DNA of 42,701 nucleotides, taken from positions 1 to 42,701 of the forward strand of contig DYQT01000003.1 in NCBI GenBank assembly GCA_020719165.1, in the 5' to 3' direction. A program made the translations under genes and the position numbers. A model generated the notes under the pieces. It ran no database searches. It was given only the letters and a program-made list of their open reading frames with translations, and had not been told where the DNA came from. Position 1 is the first letter of the stretch. Each line of letters opens with the position of its first letter. This DNA comes from Draconibacterium orientale (GTDB lineage Bacteria > Bacteroidota > Bacteroidia > Bacteroidales > FEN-979). Positions 1 to 11,283 of the stretch are shown here, piece after piece.

Positions 1-14
1 GAATTTCTGCATTC

Positions 15-938
15 CTATTTGCCGAAATCTCGCATTGTTATTTGCCGTTTACAATCTTTTTTACTCAATCTTTTTATCATGATCAGCTCATACACGGCAT
101 ACATATAATGAGCCCATACACCGGCCAACATAACAAGCAGGGTTATAATCATCCACATCGGGGCGATCGGTGTCCATAGCTCACGGGAGGGGATTTCTGC
201 CTGGTAATACTGTTTAGGGACTCCCCAGTTAATTGTGTTTTGACCCTGAAGAAATCCGAATTTATCGTGTTCTTCGATTTTCGCGATCACCACAAGGTTG
301 CCCAATGAATCGCCGACAATTTCCTTTGGAAACTCCAAGGTTCCGACACCAGTTTCATCGAGGGCAATTTCACCGATTTTCAACAGACTGAAAAGCCTTG
401 GGATATAGATGATCACTGTTTCATTCGGGATGGCAACTGCTTCACCTTTTTCATTTTCCTGAGTGGCCGTTACTTTTAAAATTCTAAGGGAGTCTTCAAC
501 ATTGAACAAAAGTTTGATTTTTGCCGGTTTAGCCACCACAGAGGCTTCTGCCCAGGGATATTTATCAGTGCCAATGAAAGTTGCAGAATAGGAAACCAAC
601 CCCTCTTTATCAGCCGGAAAGTTTGAAATTGCGACTCTGCATGTGGCGATCCCTTCCTGGGTGGTAGAGAATTTTCCTAAACTCAGGTTTGTCTCCCCGT
701 TAGAGGCAGAAAAGGCTATTTGTGCGTTTTCAAGGGCCAGGGTAAAATCACCTTTTTTTATGGAAAGGACTGCACTTAGAATGACCGAATCGGAGTTACA
801 CAAATAATTCAGCGCCAATCGGGATTCAACCGGTAGTGCGAGAGAGTCTGTTTTTTCAGCGGCAAAAGAGTTCAATGGCAGCATGGCCATGGAAATCAAC
901 GTGACAAGAAAAACCGATATTACGATAACTCTTTTCAT
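15..938 (-). CDS. Exported protein with beta-rich (Ig-like) body and C-terminal TM anchor; last visible gene of the cytochrome cluster
   Basis: 307-aa ORF; N-terminal signal peptide (MKRVIVISVFLV...SFA); C-terminal hydrophobic helix PMWMIITLLVMLAGVWAHY; 29 bp downstream of the NrfD-like gene. Confidence 0.7.
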   Translation of the reverse strand: MKRVIVISVFLVTLISMAMLPLNSFAAEKTDSLALPVESRLALNYLCNSDSVILSAVLSIKKGDFTLALENAQIAFSASNGETNLSLGKFSTTQEGIATCRVAISNFPADKEGLVSYSATFIGTDKYPWAEASVVAKPAKIKLLFNVEDSLRILKVTATQENEKGEAVAIPNETVIIYIPRLFSLLKIGEIALDETGVGTLEFPKEIVGDSLGNLVVIAKIEEHDKFGFLQGQNTINWGVPKQYYQAEIPSRELWTPIAPMWMIITLLVMLAGVWAHYMYAVYELIMIKRLSKKDCKRQITMRDFGK

Positions 939-967
939 AGGTGATAATGAGTAATTCCGGTGAATGA

Positions 968-2281
968 TTAAACTAAAACATCTTCTTTTTTATTTTCTCC
1001 CTGAGTTCCGACAAGCGGAACGATGGTAATAAACTTGGAGGCCAGGGTGAAAAGGAGACAAAAGATGGCAACACCAGCCGCGGTGAGACTCCATTCGACC
1101 CAGGTTGCCGAATAATTCAGCCATTCGGGTCGCGAATCCTGAATGGGCAGATAAGGAGATTCAAGTGTTGGAACGACAATGATATACCGGTTGAGCCACA
1201 AAGCAATGATGACAACCACGGCAGTAAGTGTGATGTTGGTTATGGTACGGAATTTGGCAATACCGATAACAATCAAGGGTAAAAGAACCCCCACATAATT
1301 TGAAAAGATAAATGGCCAGTAGAATTCTTTAAAGAGCAGTTGGATGAGTAATTCATCATTTTTTTCAGAGCCGTACCACTTCGTGAGATAATCGCTGAAG
1401 GTAAAATAGCCAAAAAAAGCAGCGAGTACCAGCATGATCACGCCTACCGACACGAAATGCTTTTTCGTTATGTATTCTTCAAGGTGGTAAACCTTTCTGA
1501 AAACCCACATGCAAACGATTAATACTGCACTCCCGGAATACACTGCGGCTATTACGAAGTAGGGCCCGAAGATGGTGCTGTGCCAGCCAGGTTGCAGGGT
1601 AACGCTGAAAATCCATGCCAATACCGAATAAACGATGATGGCAATTGCGATAACCATTGCTGCCATGATGTCGGTAGCCCTGTTTAATCGCTTTTGCTGT
1701 TCGGGCGAGCCATTGTATCCAAGTGCCAGAACTTTATACAATTTTTTTCGCCAATTGGGAAGCCGTAGCAGTTCATAATCCCTGAGGGTTGCCAGATCGC
1801 GCAATAAAGAGAGATAGAGGAAGATAAAACACCCAAAAATGTCTGTTGTGATCGCAATAACGTCCCAGGTAATTGGAGACTGAATTCTGCCAAATATAAC
1901 CAGGTAATGCAATTTATCGAGCCTTCCGATACAGAGCAGGATAAAGCACGGGCCAATCAGCAATGCGATGATGGTAATAAATTCGGCCATACGAATGATT
2001 GGTTTCCGCCATGCCGTTTTAAACAGATGGAGTGTTCCGGAGATGAGGGCGCCGGCATAACTAATTCCCATGAAGAAGATGAAGTTCACAATATAAACCC
2101 CCCATACCACATTATCGCGCATGCCTGTAACTTCGTGTCCGTTAATGACTTGTGCAAGAAAAGCGAAAAAGCCCAATATGATAACAGCTACCAGGAAAGC
2201 GAGCCATGCATAGCCATATATGGAAGTCCGCTCGAGTTGCGGAGCAAAGTCTTTTAATGAATTATTTTGTTGCAGTTCCAT
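968..2281 (-). CDS. NrfD/PsrC family polytopic membrane protein (quinol oxidoreductase membrane subunit)
   Basis: About 10 hydrophobic segments; VVWGVYIVNFIFFMGISYAG, R-MAE, SPITWD and PGWHSTIFGPYFV motifs typical of the NrfD/ActC family. Confidence 0.9.
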   Translation of the reverse strand: MELQQNNSLKDFAPQLERTSIYGYAWLAFLVAVIILGFFAFLAQVINGHEVTGMRDNVVWGVYIVNFIFFMGISYAGALISGTLHLFKTAWRKPIIRMAEFITIIALLIGPCFILLCIGRLDKLHYLVIFGRIQSPITWDVIAITTDIFGCFIFLYLSLLRDLATLRDYELLRLPNWRKKLYKVLALGYNGSPEQQKRLNRATDIMAAMVIAIAIIVYSVLAWIFSVTLQPGWHSTIFGPYFVIAAVYSGSAVLIVCMWVFRKVYHLEEYITKKHFVSVGVIMLVLAAFFGYFTFSDYLTKWYGSEKNDELLIQLLFKEFYWPFIFSNYVGVLLPLIVIGIAKFRTITNITLTAVVVIIALWLNRYIIVVPTLESPYLPIQDSRPEWLNYSATWVEWSLTAAGVAIFCLLFTLASKFITIVPLVGTQGENKKEDVLV

Positions 2282-2283
2282 GG

Positions 2284-3246
2284 TTACGGGTTATTTTTTT
2301 TGCTATACGGAGTATCTTTATAGCGATCAATAATTTCCTGATCCATGTCGACAAAGCCTCTGTCAACTTCAAACTGACGGTCAACCGGAGGCAGATAATA
2401 AACGCATGGGCGTGTGCCAAGTGTTTCAAGATAGCGGTATCCTGCACGATCGTGAATTAGCTTGCTAAACTGATATGTTTCGGTACCGTTGGTCACGGTG
2501 TCTTCGTCAATGTCGCCAAAATAGATAACTCCCATGGGGCAGGCAGAGGCGCAATAGGGTATTTTACCAACCCGGATAAGGTCGGGGCAGAAATCACATT
2601 TTGAAACGGTACCCTCTTTTCCGGGGCTGCTGGCCTCTGGTGAATAGGGTTCTTTATCTTCATCGAATTCCGGGTAATGTTTCCAGGCAAACACGCGGGA
2701 AGAATAGGGGCATCCGGTCATACAGAATTTACAGCCGATGCAGCGTTCATTGTCGATGAGCACAATTCCGTCGGATCGTTTATAGGTAGCACCAACAGGG
2801 CAAACGCTCACACAGAGAGGATTGTCGCAATGGAAACAGGGTTTAGGGAACCAATAGGGCGCTGTTTTTTCAGAATCCTGGAGCAGATAGACCTTAATAA
2901 ACTCCTGCCCTTTAGGAAGATGATGTCCTTTCTGACATGCTTCCACGCATTTACGGGCATTTTTACATTTTCCAAGGTCAATGACCATCACAAATTTACG
3001 TCCGGGAATTCCGTTATGAGAATCTTCACGGGAAACGCGGGGCAATTTTAACAAACCCCGGTCAACCTCCATAATTTCGCCGTTGGTGGTAAGAACTTTT
3101 ACTTTTTCACCGGATTCTGAAGCTGATGTATCAACATAGGCAGCAACAAGACCACCGCCCAGAGCTGCCCCGGCGCCTGCTATCAACCCTTTTTTCAAGA
3201 ATTGACGGCGTGAATTTTTCTGGCTCTTATTCAATTCTTCTTCCAC
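2284..3246 (-). CDS. NrfC/DmsB/PsrB-type four-cluster Fe-S protein with Tat signal
   Basis: SRRQFLKK twin-arginine motif; Cys groups CKNARKCVEAC, CFHCDNPLCVSVCP, CIGCKFCMTGCP and CDFC...CASACP; C-terminal LGTRPCVYY. Confidence 0.92.
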   Translation of the reverse strand: MEEELNKSQKNSRRQFLKKGLIAGAGAALGGGLVAAYVDTSASESGEKVKVLTTNGEIMEVDRGLLKLPRVSREDSHNGIPGRKFVMVIDLGKCKNARKCVEACQKGHHLPKGQEFIKVYLLQDSEKTAPYWFPKPCFHCDNPLCVSVCPVGATYKRSDGIVLIDNERCIGCKFCMTGCPYSSRVFAWKHYPEFDEDKEPYSPEASSPGKEGTVSKCDFCPDLIRVGKIPYCASACPMGVIYFGDIDEDTVTNGTETYQFSKLIHDRAGYRYLETLGTRPCVYYLPPVDRQFEVDRGFVDMDQEIIDRYKDTPYSKKNNP

Positions 3247-3256
3247 TTTTTAATTA

Positions 3257-3880
3257 TTAGTGAGATTCGTGGTAACCATTGATCATGCTTTTAAAGTTGC
3301 TTGTAGGGGTTTTTCCGATGGTGCAAAAATAGACATGAACAAACATGATGATGCTGATACCAAATCCCGCGGTGATGTGAAGCAGGTCGGTCAGGTCAAG
3401 TCCGCTGATATTAAATATGCTGTAAACCGTCATCTCAGGATAAAGAAGACCCCATCCTGAAATAATCACAAATGGGACAAACCCGTACATAAGAACCACA
3501 TACGTAACCTGCTGCAGGGGGTTGAATTTACTTTCTTCATTAACCGGGAATGGAGCATCTTCTTTTTTAAATATTCCGATCGTATAGTATTTGAATTGTT
3601 TCATCAGCCGGTCAAAAAAGCCTTTAACAGGGATTACATAATAGGCTCCGTTGGGGGTAAAGAGGTTTCCAAGAAAAAAGAGGCCATAATTTATTGTAAG
3701 AAAAATTCCTGCAATATTATGGATGGATACTGCAGCATTGAATTTTACCACAGTCTGAGGATTTGAAAACTGGATACTTAATCCGGTTATGATTAAAAGA
3801 AGGCAGAGAAGGGCATTTGTCATATGCCAGATCCTGATCCACACAGGATACAAATAGAGTTGTTCAGTTTGATGCTTCAT
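3257..3880 (-). CDS. Cytochrome b/b6-domain membrane protein (CbcB/FdnI-like)
   Basis: RIWHMTNA, SIHNIAG, LLHIT and FVHVY His-bearing TM helices; KFNPLQ motif; four hydrophobic segments. Confidence 0.88.
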   Translation of the reverse strand: MKHQTEQLYLYPVWIRIWHMTNALLCLLLIITGLSIQFSNPQTVVKFNAAVSIHNIAGIFLTINYGLFFLGNLFTPNGAYYVIPVKGFFDRLMKQFKYYTIGIFKKEDAPFPVNEESKFNPLQQVTYVVLMYGFVPFVIISGWGLLYPEMTVYSIFNISGLDLTDLLHITAGFGISIIMFVHVYFCTIGKTPTSNFKSMINGYHESH

Positions 3881-3888
3881 TTTTTGCT

Positions 3889-4914
3889 TTATTTTTTTAT
3901 GCGCAGAGCCGCATGGATGATTATTACCAAAATTGTAAGTCCGAATATTATCAGGCTGATGATGTTAAGGGTATTGCTTTTGTCTGGTCCGATCGAGGTT
4001 GAATCGCCCATCAGGAGGCCTTTGATAACACCTTCTTTTTGAATTTTTTCGCTAACCTGATACTTATATAGAGAGGCATAGAGGATGGAGTTTTTCGAAT
4101 GGCAGGATTCACATTTTCTGACGGCATCTTTTTTAGAAACCACAAGATGAGCCACGACCAGGGTGTCTTCGTTACGGGCATGACATTCGATGCACCGGAC
4201 ATTGGTAAAGTGGGATGCCTGGTTGGGCAGCCATTCATGTTTACTTAAAATATTGGGTTGGGCCTTGTTGGTAAGCAATTGGTAATTTTGCAAATCCCCG
4301 TGACAGTTGAGACAAATCATATTGTCATAGGTTATTGTCTCTTTAAGATTCTCATTTGAGCGGGCATTTATTTTATATTCATGGGCATCGTGGCACATCC
4401 AGCATGTAAAATCCTCATTGTGTTTTAAAGAATGAACACTGGCCAGGAAGGCGGTATCGATTTTTTCAAATTCAAACATCGCATATTTTTCATCACCTCC
4501 GTGGCAATCGATGCAGTTGGCGATGGCCTCCATGCGAAGATTTCCGGCGTGGGGAAAGGTTTCATAATCTTCAGAATGGCAATCGGTACATTTGAATTCA
4601 CGGTGGTTTGAAACGTAGTATAAATCACGGTTTTTAACCAATTCCGTGTACATTTTCTTAGTCACTGTTTTTTCGGAATCCGGGTTTTCGTAAGAGTATT
4701 TCGACTGACCATGGCAGCTGAAACATTTCTCATTTTCAGCAGCATTTTTAAATTTTGAAAGATCTATTTTGGAAGGTGTTTCCGGCTCGGTTTGGTTGTT
4801 ATTATTTACCGGAGAAGAGGTACCGGATAATTTGATCAGTGTGAATGCCAGCAGGCATAACAGCATTAATAAAATAACAACCCAGGCAGGACGGATATTG
4901 GCTTTATTCATCAT
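3889..4914 (-). CDS. Heptaheme c-type cytochrome with C-terminal TM helix (CbcA-like)
   Basis: Seven CxxCH motifs (CFSCH, CTDCH, CIDCH, CWMCH, CLNCH, CIECH, CESCH); N-terminal hydrophobic segment; C-terminal helix IISLIIFGLTILVIIIHAALR with His. Confidence 0.9.
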   Translation of the reverse strand: MMNKANIRPAWVVILLMLLCLLAFTLIKLSGTSSPVNNNNQTEPETPSKIDLSKFKNAAENEKCFSCHGQSKYSYENPDSEKTVTKKMYTELVKNRDLYYVSNHREFKCTDCHSEDYETFPHAGNLRMEAIANCIDCHGGDEKYAMFEFEKIDTAFLASVHSLKHNEDFTCWMCHDAHEYKINARSNENLKETITYDNMICLNCHGDLQNYQLLTNKAQPNILSKHEWLPNQASHFTNVRCIECHARNEDTLVVAHLVVSKKDAVRKCESCHSKNSILYASLYKYQVSEKIQKEGVIKGLLMGDSTSIGPDKSNTLNIISLIIFGLTILVIIIHAALRIKK

Positions 4915-4950
4915 AGTTCACAAAAAGTTAACGGAGTTTGTCGGGAAAAG

Positions 4951-4992
4951 AAAATGGGTGCAGGCAGGAAGAATCCTGCCAACACCCATTTT
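4951..4992 (-). terminator. Intra-cluster stem-loop (terminator/attenuator or RNA-stabilising hairpin)
   Basis: AAAATGGGTG-CA-GGCAGGA-agaa-TCCTGCC-AA-CACCCATTTT; followed by a U-rich tract on the - strand. Confidence 0.6.
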
Positions 4993-5019
4993 GTGCATTA
5001 TTTTTGAATCATTTTGTAA

Positions 5020-5436
5020 TTACTTTTTCATTGTGCGCATAAAAGCAACAAGGGCCCAACGGTCGCTGGCTTCCGGAATTTTCTTTTCGTAGCCGGGCAT
5101 GTCATCGCGGCCTTTGTTGGTCCGATAAAAAATTTCGCCATCTGTTCCTGCCTGGAAGGCGGCACTTGAAAAGTCGCCCGACTCTGTCTTCAGAGAGGCT
5201 GCTTTTGGTCCATCGCCCAGGCCTTTGCTGCCGTGGCATGATTTGCAATGTTTTGCCCAAAGTTCTTTACCTGTGGCTAAGTCTGCTTTTGCAGGGGCTT
5301 TCATGGCTTTATCTTTATCGGGTACCGGCCATGGTTTAGCTTTTGCCTGTTGTGCCTGAAGTGAATTTCCAAACAGGAAAACCACAGCGATAACTGCAGC
5401 CATCATGATTGATGCTAATTTTTGTGTTGTTTTCAT
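5020..5436 (-). CDS. Periplasmic monoheme class I cytochrome c
   Basis: Signal peptide ending LQA; single CKSCH; GLGDGP motif; DDMPGY distal Met; Lys/Ala-rich. Confidence 0.9.
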   Translation of the reverse strand: MKTTQKLASIMMAAVIAVVFLFGNSLQAQQAKAKPWPVPDKDKAMKAPAKADLATGKELWAKHCKSCHGSKGLGDGPKAASLKTESGDFSSAAFQAGTDGEIFYRTNKGRDDMPGYEKKIPEASDRWALVAFMRTMKK

Positions 5437-5473
5437 TGTAATTTGAATTTAGGTTAAATAATTAGTTATTTGA

Positions 5474-6424
5474 TTAAAAGCCCCATAAACGGGTCATGTT
5501 AAATCCAAGGAGAATAAAGCCATTAAAAAAGTTGTTGGTGTTGTGCATCACGATCTCCGATGGTAAAATTCCCTGGGCGGCAGAGATGTACATATGAAAA
5601 GCATGCGTACTGGTTGAAACTTCCCAGCCAAGAGAGATATTGGCATAAGGTGCCTTATTTGTGGGAATTTCGAGCCAGTCATAGCCATCTCTGACAATAA
5701 AAGCAGGATCGTAATTGATAATGATGGGCTGTGTGTAGGCAATTACGATTGATGACTGCGGACTTACTTTGACCCGTCCAAGGAGAGAAAATGCGAAGGC
5801 ATCATTTCTGGCCGTAGAATCGACGCTCTGGTCAACCCTGTTGAAATGGGTGTAGCTGAGTCCCAATTGGGCTGCAAACATGTTGTTGAACCGGCGGGCG
5901 AACATAAACTCGTTGTAATATGCAAAACGATCAATAAACTTATAGTCGGTTCCGTAAGTGGTTTTGTTGGTGGCATTGAGCGACAGATTAAAGAAATAGG
6001 CAATGGTAAGGGGGAATCCCTCTTTGCGCTGGTGCATGAAAACATATTTCACCTGTAAGTCTTGCAACCTGCTGTTTTTGGTTGTTCCCAATCCGACAAG
6101 CAAGTTTTTGGTTATACTGAAGTTCAATCCGATGCGAATGTTGGAAGCGCCCCATAGCCCTGCCAGATCTGACCAGCCATTCTGGATGGTTCCGAATCGA
6201 TGCTGGAGGACGAATTCGAGGGTTTTTGCAGGAGGTATCGCCACGGTCATGTTATCCATACAGATGCCACTTTCAAAAGCGGCTTTGGCCAGCGGTTTTT
6301 GGGTAACTTCCGGTTCTGCGGGGATAGTATCCTGTGCAAGTGAAGTTCCCATCGCAGAGATCAGCATGATAACCCCGAGTAAAAGTTTTTTCATGATCGA
6401 TATTATTGATTGCATTTTTTTCAT
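5474..6424 (-). CDS. Outer-membrane beta-barrel protein (DUF5777-like)
   Basis: Signal peptide; LEFVLQHRFG, NIRIGL and STSTHAF motifs recalled from DUF5777; alternating beta pattern; C-terminal ...LGFNMTRLWGF ending in Phe. Start may be the later Met (MKKLLLG). Confidence 0.8.
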   Translation of the reverse strand: MKKMQSIISIMKKLLLGVIMLISAMGTSLAQDTIPAEPEVTQKPLAKAAFESGICMDNMTVAIPPAKTLEFVLQHRFGTIQNGWSDLAGLWGASNIRIGLNFSITKNLLVGLGTTKNSRLQDLQVKYVFMHQRKEGFPLTIAYFFNLSLNATNKTTYGTDYKFIDRFAYYNEFMFARRFNNMFAAQLGLSYTHFNRVDQSVDSTARNDAFAFSLLGRVKVSPQSSIVIAYTQPIIINYDPAFIVRDGYDWLEIPTNKAPYANISLGWEVSTSTHAFHMYISAAQGILPSEIVMHNTNNFFNGFILLGFNMTRLWGF

Positions 6425-6455
6425 TTTTAGGGTGAATTATATTATCATACCGGAG

Positions 6456-6836
6456 TTAGTTATTTTTAGCTCCTTCTTTGATCCAGTTATAAACAATGGC
6501 ATTGTCGGTAGCATTTCCATAGTTAACCATCGATCCGCCCGACAGCAGACAAGTGTATAATATACTGGTTTCAGGGCTTAATGCAACGACCATGTTGTTA
6601 TCAAAAAGACTTTGATATGATTTTCCGCTTCTCAGGTCGGGGGCAACCGAGCCATTATGGCAACCAGCACAGCTGGTGTTAAAAAACGGTTGGACTTTAA
6701 GAGAAAAGCTTGTCGAATCACCGGGAGGAGGTGGAGGCGGGGGTGAATCGGGCTGGATAGTAGCATATTCACAAGCGCCAAACAGAAAAATTCCCATCAG
6801 GATGGCAATCAGATTGATCAATTTATTTTTATGCAT
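6456..6836 (-). CDS. Monoheme cytochrome c lipoprotein with poly-Pro linker
   Basis: Lipobox LFGAC; PPPPPPP linker; CAGCH; GGSM distal Met; WIKEGAKNN C-terminus; start chosen at MHKNKL (ORF track extends to 6860). Confidence 0.82.
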   Translation of the reverse strand: MHKNKLINLIAILMGIFLFGACEYATIQPDSPPPPPPPGDSTSFSLKVQPFFNTSCAGCHNGSVAPDLRSGKSYQSLFDNNMVVALSPETSILYTCLLSGGSMVNYGNATDNAIVYNWIKEGAKNN

Positions 6837-6926
6837 ATTTTTAAGATTTAGGAGTTGCATTCTTGTTTATTCCACAGCTGCTCAGAGCACTATAGGAGCA
6901 AGAAATTTTTTATATGTATTTAACCT

Positions 6927-6963
6927 AAAAAGGCTTCAGGGATTCACCTGAAGCCTTTTTTTT
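6927..6963 (-). terminator. Rho-independent terminator after the hexaheme cytochrome gene
   Basis: Perfect 14-bp stem AAAAAGGCTTCAGG-gattca-CCTGAAGCCTTTTT with A/T tracts on both sides. Confidence 0.8.
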
Positions 6964-6978
6964 CAACAATGAATATGA

Positions 6979-8325
6979 TTACAAATTGTCATTCAACGCC
7001 TTGATTGAATTTGCTAAGAGTGCTCTAACATAATTGGTGTTGTGAATTCCAAGGCTGTATTCCCTTAAGCAGAACTGGAAGTTGATCAACGCACCCGTTT
7101 GAACCATCAATAATTTCGGGAACTTTGGTTTTGCCATATTCGTGGCGCTGGTGTTATAAGGATCTCTCCAATATCCGGAAGGATTTGTAGATGAGCTGTA
7201 AATATCGAGGTAGCCATCATAGTTACCGGTAGTTAAACCAGCCCAGAGATTTGCAGAGGTAGCATCAGCGTGAAGAATATCATGGCCGCCGCCGCATTCG
7301 TTAATTTTGGCGGCTAATTGGTTGAGCAGGTCCTTAATTTCGGTGCGGGGGTTTTTCCATTTTGAAGAATTGGCATCGATCGGGAGTGTACCGTGGCAGG
7401 AGGTGGTGTTACAGCCGTTGAAATTCCAGGTTGTACCTGAACTCAGGGCTGATTCTTTAGCATTGCGCATGTTGAAGGCATGTCCGCCGGCAATCCCGGT
7501 CATCGGATTGGCCATATGGCAGTCCTGACAAGTAGCAACGGATGTGTGCACAGAGTTTTCGTAGGGGACATCTCCGGCGTATTCAATTCCACCCTGACCC
7601 GCATAAACAGCGCTTACGGTGCCATAGTGAACGTGCATTCTGTAGGAGGGCTTCAGCATGGTGTTTTTTGCACCGGCTGCACTGTCATACATAACGGCTT
7701 TTGGGAACATTTTAACAGAGTCGTAATTGAGCAAACGTCCGGCAGGGTCGTTGCCACAGGTAAGCGGACGGGGCTGGTGACATTTAACGCATAAATTGCT
7801 TGATCCGCCACCCTGGGCCAGGTTGATGGTTTTAGTGCCGGCCCACATGGTCATGGGAACCGGGGCAACGGAAGTGAGGGCAATGTCGGACATACCATAG
7901 GTGGTATGCAGGCTGCTGTGGCAGGTATAACAACCGATTTCGCCAATGGCGTTGGCTGCATTGGTAACATAATCATTCGCCCATTTACCGTTTACAAAGG
8001 AAAATGTAGCGGGTGTGTTGTTTGCACATACATAAACGTATGCTTTTTGTTCGTGGCATGGGCCACATGTAACATTACCGGCCTCTTCGAAGGCAGCTTC
8101 GCCCCATGAGTGCTTTGAAAGCTCAAATTCTGTGGCAATTGCATCCACAACAGCTTTGGCATGACACTGTTTGCAAGTTTCACTGGCATCTTTACCATCA
8201 GTACCATCTTTACCTGCAGGGCCGGCAATCCCCTGAGGGCCCTCCTTGGTGCAGGAGGAAAGCATTAAACATGTCGCCACGACCATCAATCCGGCAGCAT
8301 AAAATAGTTTTTGTAAATTTTTCAT
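6979..8325 (-). CDS. Multiheme (5 CxxCH + 1 CX4CH) c-type cytochrome lipoprotein with short collagen-like linker
   Basis: Lipobox LSSC; GPQGIAGPAGKDGTDGKD G-X-Y repeats; CKQCH, CGPCH, CYTCH, CVKCH, CQDCH and CNTTSCH. Confidence 0.9.
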   Translation of the reverse strand: MKNLQKLFYAAGLMVVATCLMLSSCTKEGPQGIAGPAGKDGTDGKDASETCKQCHAKAVVDAIATEFELSKHSWGEAAFEEAGNVTCGPCHEQKAYVYVCANNTPATFSFVNGKWANDYVTNAANAIGEIGCYTCHSSLHTTYGMSDIALTSVAPVPMTMWAGTKTINLAQGGGSSNLCVKCHQPRPLTCGNDPAGRLLNYDSVKMFPKAVMYDSAAGAKNTMLKPSYRMHVHYGTVSAVYAGQGGIEYAGDVPYENSVHTSVATCQDCHMANPMTGIAGGHAFNMRNAKESALSSGTTWNFNGCNTTSCHGTLPIDANSSKWKNPRTEIKDLLNQLAAKINECGGGHDILHADATSANLWAGLTTGNYDGYLDIYSSSTNPSGYWRDPYNTSATNMAKPKFPKLLMVQTGALINFQFCLREYSLGIHNTNYVRALLANSIKALNDNL

Positions 8326-8392
8326 ACTCTTACAGTTTTTGTTTAATAATACGTTTGTGCAGCAGACAACTTGTGCAAAATTGTTTCGGGAA

Positions 8393-8400
8393 CAAAAATA
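8393..8400 (-). promoter_or_regulatory. Bacteroidota -7 promoter element for the cytochrome operon
   Basis: TATTTTTG on the - strand matches TAnnTTTG, about 70 bp upstream of the 8325 start. Confidence 0.6.
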
Positions 8401-8455
8401 TCAAAGTTTGTGAAGGGAGTTGTTAATAAGTCAGTGAGATTTGTTAATATATTAA

Positions 8456-8493
8456 CTGATATATCTCAATCCATGATTGACATATATCAATCA
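8456..8493. promoter_or_regulatory. Tandem FNR-like boxes
   Basis: TTGAC-ATAT-ATCAA (8477-8490, within the palindrome TGATTGA-N6-TCAATCA) and CTGAT-ATAT-CTCAA (8456-8469), versus consensus TTGAT-N4-ATCAA; 21 bp apart. Confidence 0.65.
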
Positions 8494-8514
8494 GTTCTAC
8501 AATTCAAGAATTAC

Positions 8515-8611
8515 GTAATGGATTTGTTGCCAGGAGTAATAGAGTGATAATTTTGGTTATGGGTTAAAAAATGACATTCCGACAGTGAAAGTATTATCAA
8601 CCGGTTTCGCT
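8515..8611. repeat. Direct repeat copy 1 (duplicate of the Crp/Fnr gene 3' end and downstream sequence)
   Basis: Matches 9400..9497 with 8 substitutions and 1 indel. Confidence 0.93.
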
Positions 8612-8641
8612 CCTGACTTCTGACATTTAGTGTGGTACAAC

Positions 8642-8733
8642 GCGAAGTACGAGTTACGAATGACGAAGTACGAATGACGAAGTACAAAGTATGGAATTAG
8701 CCGGACGTTGTTCGTCATTCGAACTTTGTCCTT
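8642..8733. repeat. Heptamer array (ACGAAGT/ACGAATG, 7 units) including 66-bp direct repeat copy A (8668..8733)
   Basis: gcgaagt acgagtt acgaatg acgaagt acgaatg acgaagt acaaagt, then inverted units ttcgtca ttcgaac tttgtcc. Confidence 0.85.
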
Positions 8734-8883
8734 CCCATTTTCGTGTGTATTTCTTACTTTGTCTTTCGTACTTTTCCCCCAGTTTCCAGCATAGCCGTTT
8801 TAATGCTCGCTATAAATATTGCCAGCAATTCTGTTTGGATTTCTGGTAACCATTAAGGCACTGAGAACACGCAGGAACACGAA

Positions 8884-9020
8884 GTCTTTGGTAGTTTTCA
8901 AAATGCTTCCGTTACCAATGGTACCATAGATTCCACTAAACCTCGGCCAGGGAATTTATGAACCTCGATCGCACAACCGACTATTTTATATGCAATCTCT
9001 TTGATCTGTTATTGAGTCAT
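8884..9020 (-). pseudogene. GxxExxY protein remnant (internally deleted, two stops)
   Basis: Minus-strand translation from ATG 9020: MTQ*QIKEIAYKIVGCAIEVHKFPGRGLVES-MVPLVTEAF*KLPK; aligns with ISGIILDTCITVHKIMGPGLLES of the gene at 42297; flanked by ~37-bp imperfect inverted repeats (8848-8884 / 9035-9072). Confidence 0.8.
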
Positions 9021-9190
9021 ATTCTTTACTTTTTCTCAGTGATCCTGAGTGAACTCAGGTGCCTCAGTGGTTTTCCTTTTTTCAAAAAAAGAATGAAAAA
9101 TAACCCAATGGACACCCATTCTGCATATCCATCTCAAAAAAATCAAGCATTACAGAGCACAATGTTTAAAAGTGCGGAAAACAGGGCGAT

Positions 9191-9256
9191 GTACAAATGA
9201 CGAAGTACAAAATTTGGGGTTAGCCGGCCGTTGTTCGTCCTTCGAACTTTGTACTT
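9191..9256. repeat. 66-bp direct repeat copy B
   Basis: gtacaaatgacgaagtacaaaatttggggttagccggccgttgttcgtccttcgaactttgtactt, colinear with 8668..8733. Confidence 0.88.
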
Positions 9257-9399
9257 AAAATGGGCGTTAGTGCGGTAAAAATCACAATTGTGAATTTCAT
9301 GTCATTCAAATTCAATTGCTTGAAAAATGTTAACACACTAAAAACAAGAAGCGTCAGAAGTCAGGACAGAAATCAATCAGATCAACAATTAAAAATCAG

Positions 9400-9497
9400 G
9401 TAACGGGTTTGTTGCCGGGAGCAACGGGGTGATAATTTTGGTTATGGGTTGAAAAAATGACATTCCGATAGTGAAAGTATTATCAACCGGTTTCGCT
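9400..9497. repeat. Direct repeat copy 2 (includes the last codons SETG* of the Crp/Fnr gene)
   Basis: Matches 8515..8611. Confidence 0.93.
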
Positions 9498-10178
9498 GAT
9501 CTGGCGAAGTTGTTTGATATTTAAAATCTCCAGGGTGTTTGTTGAGAGGGTGAGGATTCCTTCTTCTTTGAATTCTTTCAAAATACGGATAGCGCTTTCT
9601 TTAGACATGCCGGAGAGGTCGGCCAGATCCTGCCGGGAGATGGTCATTTCAAACGGATTTTGACAATAAATTTTATCTGCCAGATAAAAAATCACATCAG
9701 CTATTCGTCCATGCATCTGTTTCTGGGTGAGGCTGATAATTTGATCGAAATTGAAAATTGACTGCAGAGATACGCGTTTGATGAATTCTTCGGCAAAATC
9801 GGGATTAGCGCGAATAAAGGTTTTGAAAACACTCACATCAACCAGGCATGCGGTTGAATCCTGCACGGCGGCGGCAGAATAGTAATGGCGGTTGTCAACG
9901 TATATGCCTGGCCCGAAAATATAATCGAATGGTTTAATAAGGGAGAGAATCAGGTTTTTGCCATAACCTTCGATATATATTTTTGCCAGCCCGGAGGTTA
10001 CACAAACGAAATAGGGCGAAGGTGTTCCCTGTTTAAAAATAATCTCTCCTGCTTTATAACTAACCTGAAACCGGCTGCTGTTGATCAGTTCGATTTCAAG
10101 CGGACTTAAATTTTTAAAGATAAATGATTTACAATTACAATCGGCGCAGTTGGAAGAATGATGAATTTTATTTACCAT
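9483..10178 (-). CDS. Crp/Fnr family transcriptional regulator with N-terminal Cys cluster
   Basis: CADCNC N-terminus; cNMP-like domain (YKAGEIIFKQG); HTH ISRQDLADLSGMSKESAIRILKEF; TATCTTTG promoter box at 10219-10226. Confidence 0.93.
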   Translation of the reverse strand: MVNKIHHSSNCADCNCKSFIFKNLSPLEIELINSSRFQVSYKAGEIIFKQGTPSPYFVCVTSGLAKIYIEGYGKNLILSLIKPFDYIFGPGIYVDNRHYYSAAAVQDSTACLVDVSVFKTFIRANPDFAEEFIKRVSLQSIFNFDQIISLTQKQMHGRIADVIFYLADKIYCQNPFEMTISRQDLADLSGMSKESAIRILKEFKEEGILTLSTNTLEILNIKQLRQISETG

Positions 10179-10266
10179 CGGATTTGGCTGCTTGGGCCTG
10201 AATTTTTGGAATAGCAGACAAAGATAGTGCTAAGTTGATATAAAACAAATTATTTGACGTTATTTA

Positions 10267-11283
10267 TCAATGGGGGGGTTGAGAAATGTCAATACCGGAA
10301 AGATTTTCTGACACCAGGTATTCGGCAATCTGGACCGCATTGGTGGCTGCTCCTTTACGGAGGTTATCGGCGACAATAAAGAGGTTGAGCGAGTTTGGCT
10401 GTGATTCGTCGCGTCTGATTCTGCCAACGAAAACTTCGTCTTTTCCTGCTGCATCCATGGGCATTGGATAGATGTTGTTTTTAATGTCGTCGCGGATGAT
10501 GATTCCGGGGGTATTGCCAAGAAGTTCAGTAATGTCATCAATTTCGAAATCGTGTTCAAACTCCAGGTTGATTGCTTCAGAGTGGCCGCCTAAAACGGGA
10601 ACCCTGACGATGGTAGCGGTAATGCGGATCGAATAATCGTTGAGAATTTTACGAGTTTCATTCACCAGTTTGATCTCTTCGGAGGTATATCCATTGTTGA
10701 GAAAATCGCCCCCATGCGGAAACAGGTTGAGATCAATCGGGTAGGGATAGGCCATCTCTCCTTTAATTCCCTTCCGTTCATTTTCAAGTTGCATGACGGC
10801 TTTGGCGCCGGTTCCCGTAACCGATTGATAGGTAGATGCAACGATTCTCTTGATATGGTATTTCGCGTGTAGCGGAGCCAGTACCAGAACCATCTGAATG
10901 GTGGAACAATTGGGATTGGCAATAATCTTGTGACTCCTGGTAAGGATAGAAGCATTTATTTCAGGAACGATCAGCGGAACCTCATTATTCATTCGCCAGG
11001 CTGATGAGTTGTCGATTACCGTGATGCCAGCCGCTGCATATTGCGGAGCCCATTCCCGGGATGCGGCAGCGCCTGCAGAAAAGATGGCAATATCGGGCTT
11101 CGCGGCAATAGCCTGTTCGTGTGTGTGAATAAAATAACGATGGTTGTTGAACAGCACAGGAAGACCTTGTGATTTAGGGGAGGCAACAGGGATAAAGGTT
11201 TCGGGATAAAACGCATGTTCGTCAAGAACTTTTAGAATTTCCCGGCCAACAAGTCCGGTAACACCGACAATTGCCAGTTTCAT
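10267..11283 (-). CDS. asd: Aspartate-semialdehyde dehydrogenase
   Basis: AIVGVTGLVG, IDNSSAWRM, IIANPNCSTIQ, STYQSVTGTG and DNLRKGAATNAVQIAE; true start MKLAIV at 11283; promoter box TACCTTTG at 11302-11309. Confidence 0.96.
   Translation of the reverse strand: MKLAIVGVTGLVGREILKVLDEHAFYPETFIPVASPKSQGLPVLFNNHRYFIHTHEQAIAAKPDIAIFSAGAAASREWAPQYAAAGITVIDNSSAWRMNNEVPLIVPEINASILTRSHKIIANPNCSTIQMVLVLAPLHAKYHIKRIVASTYQSVTGTGAKAVMQLENERKGIKGEMAYPYPIDLNLFPHGGDFLNNGYTSEEIKLVNETRKILNDYSIRITATIVRVPVLGGHSEAINLEFEHDFEIDDITELLGNTPGIIIRDDIKNNIYPMPMDAAGKDEVFVGRIRRDESQPNSLNLFIVADNLRKGAATNAVQIAEYLVSENLSGIDISQPPH

Follow-up and report, generated by a model that had tools for sequence, protein, structure and literature searches.

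A nine-gene cytochrome cluster in Draconibacterium orientale

The window, by which we mean the whole 42,701-nucleotide stretch of DNA analyzed here, is contig C375 (DYQT01000003.1) of a Draconibacterium orientale genome (GCA_020719165.1; Bacteroidota) that is 81% complete and comprises 520 contigs. Nine genes at its left end, between positions 15 and 8325, all lie on the minus strand, separated by 2-118 bp, and encode predicted cytochromes, an outer-membrane barrel, an iron-sulfur protein, a membrane subunit and an exported protein. We refer to them as H6, m, B, c, H7, b, C, D and X, and to the Crp/Fnr-family gene upstream as R (Table 1). A first-pass annotation of the window had proposed them as a candidate complete conduit for extracellular electron transfer (EET), and we consider here how far that proposal holds.

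The gene inventory of that annotation is accurate: every gene is at the place given, on the minus strand, with the features described. The protein listed as a hexaheme lipoprotein does have six heme sites, although the sixth is CX4CH rather than CXXCH. The genes for m and B are separate open reading frames (ORFs), 31 nt apart. Neither the ORF list nor family scans of the window revealed genes for a molybdoenzyme, NrfA or a hydrogenase.

Table 1. Coordinates of the cluster, its regulator and nearby features (positions in the window).
Feature	Position	Strand	Basis or remark
X: exported protein, signal peptide and conserved C-terminal membrane helix	15-938	-	no family
D: NrfD-family integral membrane quinol-interacting subunit	968-2281	-	PF03916, E 1.4e-30
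C: four-cluster iron-sulfur protein exported by twin-arginine translocation (TAT), NrfC/DsrO-like, 320 aa	2284-3246	-	Fer4_11 and TAT signal
b: four-helix diheme cytochrome b, thiosulfate-reductase-cytochrome-b-like, CbcB-like	3257-3880	-	PF01292, E 7e-25
H7: heptaheme cytochrome c, C-terminal membrane helix, CbcA-like	3889-4914	-	seven CXXCH; hydrophobic helices at N- and C-terminus
c: class I monoheme cytochrome c, signal peptide, probably His/Met ligated	5020-5436	-	PF13442 and PF00034
B: DUF5777 outer-membrane barrel, ~12 strands	5474-6424	-	PF19089, E 4.3e-63; AlphaFold 2 (AF2) model
m: monoheme c-type cytochrome lipoprotein, PSCyt1/LIC11213-like, Pro-rich tether	6456-6860	-	lipobox, one CXXCH
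H6: hexaheme c-type cytochrome lipoprotein, collagen-like Gly-X-Y stalk	6979-8325	-	lipobox Cys25, heme motifs
Second, weaker FNR-like box	8456-8469		two mismatches; alone not above chance
FNR-type palindrome TTGATATATGTCAA	8477-8490		one mismatch to TTGAT-N4-ATCAA; 152-165 nt upstream of H6 start codon
R: Crp/Fnr-family regulator	9483-10178	-	PF00027 and PF13545
Contig-end repeat replacing last residues of X	1-53		same 53 bases end contig C118

Conserved cofactor sites and candidate inner-membrane modules

The cofactor sites of the two multiheme cytochromes are strongly conserved. In 24 homologues of H6, the five CXXCH motifs, the CX4CH motif and the lipobox Cys are all invariant, and so are six further His. 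For H7, each of the seven CXXCH motifs is conserved in at least 97% of 60 sequences, alongside seven further invariant His, and His334, within the C-terminal hydrophobic helix, is kept in 88%. The ligand counts (six motifs and six additional His in H6, seven and seven in H7) point to electron transfer rather than catalysis; the hemes of H6 are apparently all bis-His, with no open catalytic site. A run of at least five Gly-X-Y repeats follows the lipid anchor in 75 of 86 members of the H6 family. The MtrC/MtrF domain II/IV model (PF22113) scores 28.1 bits on the H6 of the window, below its cut-off of 30, and matches 18 of the 24 homologues at E <= 0.001. A search of the H6 profile against solved structures gave no significant match (best E 0.015).

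H7 and b are adjacent in 55 of the 80 related loci described below. Four His of b (His19, 54, 168 and 182) are each kept in 96% or more of the sequences, and the model that matches b best, PRK15006 for thiosulfate-reductase cytochrome b, scores 182 bits, below its cut-off of 204. These features recall CbcBA of Geobacter sulfurreducens, an inner-membrane menaquinol oxidoreductase of the bc type on which EET depends below about -0.21 V. The CbcBA preprint describes a seven-heme cytochrome whose C-terminal helix contributes a His and, beside it, a diheme cytochrome b of four helices that is usually annotated as thiosulfate-reductase-like; it reports homologous clusters in Prolixibacter, Marinilabiliales and Labilibaculum, and proposes cbcBA as a marker of EET.

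The second candidate module consists of C, D and X. All 16 Cys of C are conserved in all 40 sequences aligned, and the closest model is that for DsrO (170 bits, below cut-off). X, for which family scans found no family, carries a conserved RELWTP motif and a helix with conserved Trp, Gly, His and Tyr. It always follows C-D, and the three genes co-occur (C, D and X in 37, 36 and 36 of the 80 loci, respectively, and together in 10/10 genomes that have X and no H6). The CXXCH motif and Met113 of c are conserved in all 52 aligned sequences. By composition, C-D-X and c would make up a quinol:cytochrome c module of the NrfCD type that has X as an additional subunit.

The m-B pair

In relatives, m lies directly upstream of B. 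The lipobox Cys of m and the CH of its heme motif are invariant and the Pro-rich tether is kept; the motif itself is CXXCH in 27 of 32 sequences and CX4CH in five of 32. The column that likely holds the distal ligand is Met or His in nearly all rows, being Met in the window and His in other members. Model NF047812 matches m with E 7e-14, a score below that model's cut-off. Both c and the m proteins of this clade appear to be His/Met cytochromes.

The assignment of B to PF19089 is secure (213 bits against a cut-off of 23.1). Its AF2 model has 12 strands, with a predicted local distance difference test score (pLDDT) of 81.6, and the Foldseek neighbors are NanC, KdgM, a COG4313 channel, FapF and OmpG (E 1e-6 to 1e-4). 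The closest solved folds are small channels and translocators. The barrels of known porin-cytochrome conduits have about 20-26 strands. The modeled B would be too narrow to sheathe a multiheme cytochrome as MtrB does; hence, if the model is right, the outer-membrane step cannot use an MtrAB-type sheath. Prediction of a complex of B (residues 31-316), m (residues 31-134) and heme gave a score of 0.01, which is evidence neither way. We found no longer DUF5777 protein that might represent a fused cytochrome-barrel in a search that covered 645-2000 aa and left lengths of 174-553 aa aside, and the term DUF5777 appeared in no paper retrieved by our literature search.

The m-B pair diverges much faster than H6 in our alignments. 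Where H6 is 70-77% identical to that of the window, identity often drops to ~40% for m and B, and B then has 360 rather than 316 aa. This may reflect either exchange of two m-B subtypes or rapid evolution of the pair. At DUF5777 loci, the DUF5777 gene recurs together with genes for a monoheme cytochrome of PSCyt1/Haem_bd-like type, a ~145-aa OB-fold (tRNA_anti-like) protein and a ~185-aa YceI-like protein; in the two or three loci scanned, the YceI-like and OB-fold genes lie between the m-like cytochrome gene and DUF5777.

Conservation of the cluster and its regulator

A profile search with H6 found relatives in 189 species-level genomes. We used the best 80 loci, many of which are cut by contig ends, and located the genes by tblastn with ten window proteins. 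All 80 are from metagenome-assembled genomes (MAGs), which by their titles belong to organisms of Bacteroidales/Prolixibacteraceae type and come from lakes, peat, soil surveys and similar sources. R is present in 65 of these loci, B in 57, H7 and b in 55 each, m in 52 and c in 48, in addition to the counts for C, D and X given above. The complete set of nine is found in 32 loci and takes four orders: the order of the window (20 loci), H6 facing an inverted c-X-D-C-b-H7-B-m block (nine loci), b-H7 diverging from m-B-C-D-X-c-H6 (two loci), and an arrangement with H6 last (one locus). The third order is also found in a genome of another family of the same class (G131), with unrelated regulators on both sides; since this locus may duplicate one of the 80, we do not count it as independent. 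The gene set is co-conserved in these loci, and its persistence through four orders argues that the grouping is more than chance.

R adjoins H6 in 65 of the 80 loci. Of 84 regions upstream of H6, 55 contain a TTGAT-N4-ATCAA box with at most one mismatch, compared with 66 of 2000 random 250-nt windows of the same loci, and it is 125-206 nt upstream of most H6 genes. Gene adjacency and box conservation together support a dedicated Crp/Fnr regulon. Of 66 R sequences, at least 97% have each of Cys11, Cys14 and Cys111, and only 38% have Cys16; scores against the FnrL and Fnr models fall far short of the cut-offs. In FNR the [4Fe-4S] cluster is held by four Cys, three N-terminal and one central.

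Between R and H6, the window has a direct duplication of ~133 bp (8479-8611 and 9365-9497; 83-94% identical, 886 bp apart). The duplicated sequence takes in the FNR-box region as well as the 3' end of crp, and its two copies bracket an insert of ~750 bp with internal repeats of its own (8650-8733 and 9187-9256). The crp-H6 spacing in relatives is only ~250 bp. A scan of positions 1-10400 for sigma-70 promoters and terminators gave counts at chance level.

A wider unit in genomes that lack H6

X is found in 13 of 401 sampled Bacteroidota genomes. The 10/10 genomes that have X but not H6 share one gene order: lipoprotein, m, B, C, D, X, c. Among the upstream neighbors scanned, nine are lipoproteins: four are EB_dh/CBM9-type heme-b proteins, three are YceI proteins above the Pfam cut-off, one is a YceI protein below it, and one is PSCyt1-like. 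A tenth scanned neighbor is an HlyD-type protein. This distribution suggests that m-B-C-D-X-c is an older unit, wider in Bacteroidota, that would link the quinone pool to a barrel with a tethered heme, and that in the clade of the window it has probably been joined to H6, the CbcBA-like pair and the regulator. H6 sits where the EB_dh or YceI lipoproteins stand upstream of m-B, which suggests that the terminal carrier has been swapped within one system.

One single-contig genome (G219) has an EB_dh-type (heme-b, DOMON-like) lipoprotein gene (L036:11053-12288) between that of an H6-like six-heme lipoprotein and m-B. The same genome has the C-D-X-c unit twice in tandem, followed by a gene whose first residues, in place of a family scan, read as hemA.

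H6-like genes in other classes of the phylum

We examined nine loci from other classes. In all nine, an H6-like lipoprotein gene, encoding the same Gly-X-Y start and five or six hemes, stands at the end of a gene set and next to genes for a 12-14-heme cytochrome and a heme-free protein. The heme-free protein is conserved between loci, is intact at ~425-458 aa in eight of the nine (split in L034), and ends in Phe in the five of five checked. Between them, in eight of nine loci (none in L041), is a 4-6-heme protein with a lipobox-like start in those inspected, and an 11-heme protein and a small 3-4-heme protein occur in combination with these. One of the H6-like proteins passes the MtrC/MtrF domain II/IV cut-off (34 versus 30 bits). 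By analogy, the layout of these sets would be that of Geobacter-type porin-cytochrome (PCC) clusters, and the presence of H6-like genes inside them places the H6 family, by association, among outer EET cytochromes. Porin-cytochrome clusters of this type have been reported in Ignavibacteria. In the genome of the window, we found no homologue of the heme-free larger-barrel protein or of the 14-heme protein of these sets.

Among the loci L032-L042, several have a gene for a ~748-aa protein after the H6-like gene, and the one that was scanned (L033) is a CcmF/NrfE-type heme lyase. Such a lyase may act on the CX4CH site, which is retained in every H6 protein.

Flanking genes and host genome

The first-pass annotation had noted that the cluster encodes no catalytic subunit, and this holds both for the window and for relatives whose contigs run past X. 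In the 10 close relatives whose far flank was inspected, no catalytic subunit is seen beyond X; the genes that follow are a stand-alone riboflavin kinase (E 7.6e-42), a divergent gldH and a gene that resembles a sensor kinase, the last being a sequence impression rather than the result of a family scan. A catalytic reductase just to the left of the window was rejected on the synteny of these relatives; the contig of the window itself ends in a repeat.

X of the relatives ends in ...KRLSKKDKPLF, and the final ~13 residues of the window's X are different, since a repeat that also forms the end of contig C118 takes up the first 53 bases. Positions 1-53 equal G000:C118:8170-8222, after which the two contigs diverge, which suggests that a mobile element or repeat is inserted just after the cluster. 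C118 has nine ORFs on one strand, and the single ORF scanned has no Pfam family.

In 21 of the 80 loci (L044-L065), all with the gene order of the window, the riboflavin kinase gene (PF01687, E 7.6e-42; for example L047:18485-18940) comes after the cluster and shares its strand, even where C-D-X is missing (L056). No copy turned up by tblastn in the incomplete genome of the window. Two relatives have a gene for an additional 497-aa six-heme membrane cytochrome after X (L062:18343-19836 and L064:18433-19926). The L062 protein has a NapC/NirT-type N-terminus by family scan and the L064 copy begins alike, making this cytochrome a candidate for a third quinol dehydrogenase. The rest of the scanned window holds housekeeping-type genes and genes typical of Bacteroidota, including those for a type IX secretion system sorting domain and an S46 peptidase.

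In the host genome, a fused ResB-CcsA-type gene of system II cytochrome c maturation is present, as are two VitK2_biosynth genes of the futalosine pathway to menaquinone; at 81% completeness, neither the menB nor the menA model scored above its cut-off. Two heme-copper oxidases, a cytochrome bd and a canonical alternative complex III (ACIII; contig C340, with an 863-aa ActB-like ORF) are also encoded. There are two further cytochrome clusters. One, on contig C226 (L178), has genes for proteins with 15 and with 19 hemes, adjoined by a ferredoxin-flavoprotein oxidoreductase-like gene and by genes for secreted proteins of no family. The other, on contig C88 (L179), encodes a 7-heme NapC/NirT-like protein next to a 328-aa secreted protein and a 120-aa lipoprotein.

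A proposed respiratory branch and its alternatives

What is the function of this cluster? We propose, with about an even chance of being right, that it encodes an anaerobically induced respiratory branch that carries electrons from menaquinol to c-type cytochromes tethered at the outer membrane, with no catalytic enzyme of its own, and that the acceptor is extracellular or accessible from the envelope, such as Fe(III), Mn(IV) or humic quinones. In this scheme, R would bind the conserved box upstream of H6 and turn the operon on at low oxygen. Two quinol dehydrogenases would then feed the periplasm, one being the CbcBA-like bc-type pair of H7 and b, and the other the NrfCD-type C-D-X with its single-helix subunit. 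The class I cytochrome c would ferry electrons across the periplasm, and m, with one heme on a Pro-rich tether, and H6, with six hemes on a collagen-like stalk, would be the outermost carriers, in an order that we leave provisional. The DUF5777 barrel would be the obligate partner of m, too narrow for a cytochrome and not an MtrAB-type sheath. The genes with their cofactor sites, the co-conservation, the regulon and the modular ancestry are established here; the direction of flow, the acceptor and the placement of H6 and m are inferred, and the outer-membrane step most of all.

Several observations weigh against this proposal. With a ~12-strand B and no periplasmic multiheme cytochrome encoded in the cluster, no known path for electrons across the outer membrane fits. 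DUF5777 is found in 163 of the 401 sampled Bacteroidota genomes and H6 in 25 of them; an m-like monoheme cytochrome gene is near DUF5777 in 21 of 30 sampled loci (L123-L152), and the two are widespread in Bacteroidota without multiheme cytochromes. This wide distribution argues that the role of m-B is general rather than specific to metal respiration. There is no B near H6 in 23 of the 80 loci, including some whose 10-kb flanks are complete; R can thus be the only companion of H6. The likeness of H7 and b to Geobacter CbcA and CbcB is by published description and not by sequence. His/Met cytochromes are usually of high potential, and c and m, if they are of this type, fit poorly with a low-potential route of the CbcBA kind. 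The model of H6 has low confidence (pLDDT 56.5), and Foldseek gave no match for it at E <= 0.001; the weak top rows (a Carboxydothermus S-layer undecaheme cytochrome, OcwA and NrfA-type reductases) are leads only. The motif that directs Bacteroidota lipoproteins to the surface is K-(D/E)2, and the residues after the lipobox of H6 and m (C-T-K-E-G, C-E-G-P and C-E-K-Y) do not fit it.

These points bear directly on the conduit as originally proposed. A complete conduit is not supported, given the 12-strand B, the lack of a soluble periplasmic multiheme cytochrome in the cluster, and the wide occurrence of DUF5777 and m-like genes without multiheme cytochromes; structure prediction of the barrel, which the first-pass annotation had suggested as a check, gave 12 strands and NanC/KdgM/COG4313/FapF-like neighbors. 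The comparison with porin-cytochrome conduits survives in part: H6-like genes lie in PCC-like clusters of other classes, but the analogy fails at the outer membrane of the window's cluster. The comparison of the inner-membrane modules with Geobacter fares better, given that H7 and b bear the published hallmarks of CbcBA and that the preprint names Bacteroidetes homologues.

The narrow barrel could instead mean that no electrons cross the outer membrane. H6 and m would then face the periplasm, B would admit a small soluble acceptor such as chelated Fe(III) or Mn(III), a small quinone or a flavin, and H6 would be the terminal reductase. We consider this unlikely. In its favor, the nearest folds of B are channels for small solutes or hydrophobic compounds (NanC, KdgM, COG4313 and OmpG), a canonical surface-export motif is missing after the lipobox, no cytochrome that spans the outer membrane is encoded, and the hemes of H6 all appear bis-His, a trait of non-specific metal and quinone reductases. 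However, H6-like proteins elsewhere occupy the position of the outer cytochrome in PCC-like clusters, a collagen-like stalk and a Pro-rich tether would be unusual for a plain periplasmic reductase, and the strict pairing of m with B suggests physical partnership rather than shared use of a channel. Electron flow in the opposite direction would involve oxidation of Fe(II) or reduced humics by m/B and H6, with electrons passing through c to terminal oxidases, or uphill through C-D to quinones, as proposed for Cyc2-Cyc1-ACIII of iron oxidizers. The monoheme cytochrome paired with a barrel recalls Cyc2, c and the m of the window look like His/Met cytochromes, the genome has two heme-copper oxidases, cytochrome bd and ACIII, and an FNR-type regulator would also suit microoxic conditions. 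Nonetheless, we regard electron uptake as very unlikely. Other members have His where the m of the window has Met, and m and B are separate proteins, with B at 12 strands against the larger barrel predicted for Cyc2. Furthermore, the CbcBA-like module is described as a quinol oxidase that serves reduction of external acceptors.

It is also conceivable that the genes do not form one pathway. In that case, m-B-C-D-X-c would be a general module for redox partners in the envelope or secreted from the cell (heme-b DOMON-type or YceI quinone-binding proteins), serving, for example, oxidative polysaccharide breakdown, iron assimilation or redox upkeep of the envelope, and R-H6 and H7-b would merely be adjacent to it. 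The modules do occur apart: m-B-C-D-X-c is found without H6 or H7 in all 10 H6-less genomes with X, with EB_dh or YceI upstream; R-H6 occurs alone; and H7-b is also found without C-D-X (55 versus 37 of the 80 loci). A precedent for such redox partners comes from Cellvibrio, where Cbp2D and Cbp2E have YceI-like quinone-binding domains and c-type cytochrome domains and are secreted electron donors for lytic polysaccharide monooxygenases (LPMOs). Against this, the nine genes stay together through four rearranged orders, they are on one strand with gaps of at most 118 bp in the window, and the position of H6 in place of an EB_dh or YceI lipoprotein suggests a swapped terminal carrier rather than a chance neighbor. 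We find it distinctly unlikely that the modules are independent, and return to the single respiratory branch as our working proposal. A bolder possibility, which we hold to be improbable but worth stating, is that the m-B pair is a new, phylum-wide outer-membrane redox gate fed by a dedicated NrfCD-X-cytochrome c quinol dehydrogenase, with wire-free transfer across or along the outer membrane, for instance by way of a bound lipophilic quinone or of a heme at the mouth of the 12-strand barrel, and with an exchangeable lipoprotein that is H6 in Bacteroidales of anoxic water and an EB_dh/DOMON or YceI protein elsewhere.

What would a respiratory branch of this kind mean? Bacteroidales have a major part in polymer degradation in anoxic lake water, peat and sediment, and how they dispose of electrons without nitrate or oxygen is poorly known. 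The cluster supplies marker genes (H6, the CbcBA-like pair and m-B-C-D-X-c) for iron, manganese and humic respiration in Bacteroidota, genes that FeGenie-type searches built on proteobacterial models would probably miss. A barrel this small does not suit the known mechanism, which leaves two options, a new kind of outer-membrane step or reduction of the acceptors in the periplasm; each would alter the interpretation of such gene sets in metagenomes. The cluster is also a defined gene set for deletion or expression.

Comparison with known systems

The first-pass annotation held that no EET pathway is well defined in Bacteroidota. That is a fair statement, although PCC-like operons and possible EET pathways have already been mentioned in print for Bacteroidetes/Prolixibacteraceae bins. 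One figure legend, in a reservoir paper (PMC10504345), lists Phs, NrfD, 4Fe-4S and MHC, and a boreal-lake preprint lists 606 novel multiheme clusters; a preprint on EET in peat makes no mention of Bacteroidota. Our literature search, which lay outside the supplements of PMC10504345 and the boreal-lake preprint, found no paper that describes H6, the m-B pair, the C-D-X-c unit or this cluster.

The general plan of MtrCAB in Shewanella and of Pcc/Ext in Geobacter, a quinol oxidase followed by a periplasmic carrier and a barrel gene next to genes for lipoprotein cytochromes, is also that of the cluster. H6 recalls MtrC and MtrF through weak, recurrent matches to their domain II/IV model, although the H6 of the window is below the cut-off. 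The outer-membrane components differ: B has ~12 strands where the conduits have many more, and there is no soluble periplasmic multiheme protein of the MtrA/OmaB type, given that H6 is a lipoprotein, H7 has hydrophobic helices at both ends, and c and m have one heme each.

C, D and c resemble NrfCD, NosGH with NosC1/C2, and ActB2-ActC in combining a TAT-exported four-cluster iron-sulfur protein, an NrfD-type subunit and a monoheme cytochrome c as acceptor. They differ from NrfCD, NosGH and ACIII in having no NrfA, NosZ, ActA, ActB1 or ActF, and in the extra subunit X, which belongs to no known family. ACIII includes the pentaheme ActA, an ActB that contains a molybdopterin-like domain, and ActF as a second subunit of the NrfD-like kind. 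By contrast, C has only iron-sulfur domains, and the cluster has a single NrfD gene.

Cyc2 of iron oxidizers is a fused monoheme cytochrome-porin for which a larger barrel is predicted. Like Cyc2, the m-B pair matches one heme with one outer-membrane barrel, and the two genes are always adjacent; unlike Cyc2, m and B are separate proteins, m being a lipoprotein on a long tether. The parallel with Cbp2D and Cbp2E of Cellvibrio is that the wider DUF5777 family encodes a small c-type cytochrome together with a YceI-like protein; since the window's cluster has neither a YceI gene nor a carbohydrate-binding module, it extends to the wider m-B family only.

The remaining comparison is with CbcBA. 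H7 would correspond to its cytochrome c, with seven hemes and a C-terminal anchor that includes a His, and b to the adjacent four-helix, thiosulfate-reductase-like cytochrome b. The two systems differ in their regulators, a Crp/Fnr protein here and a sigma-54-type regulator, BccR, in Geobacter, and in that b has four conserved His of its own.

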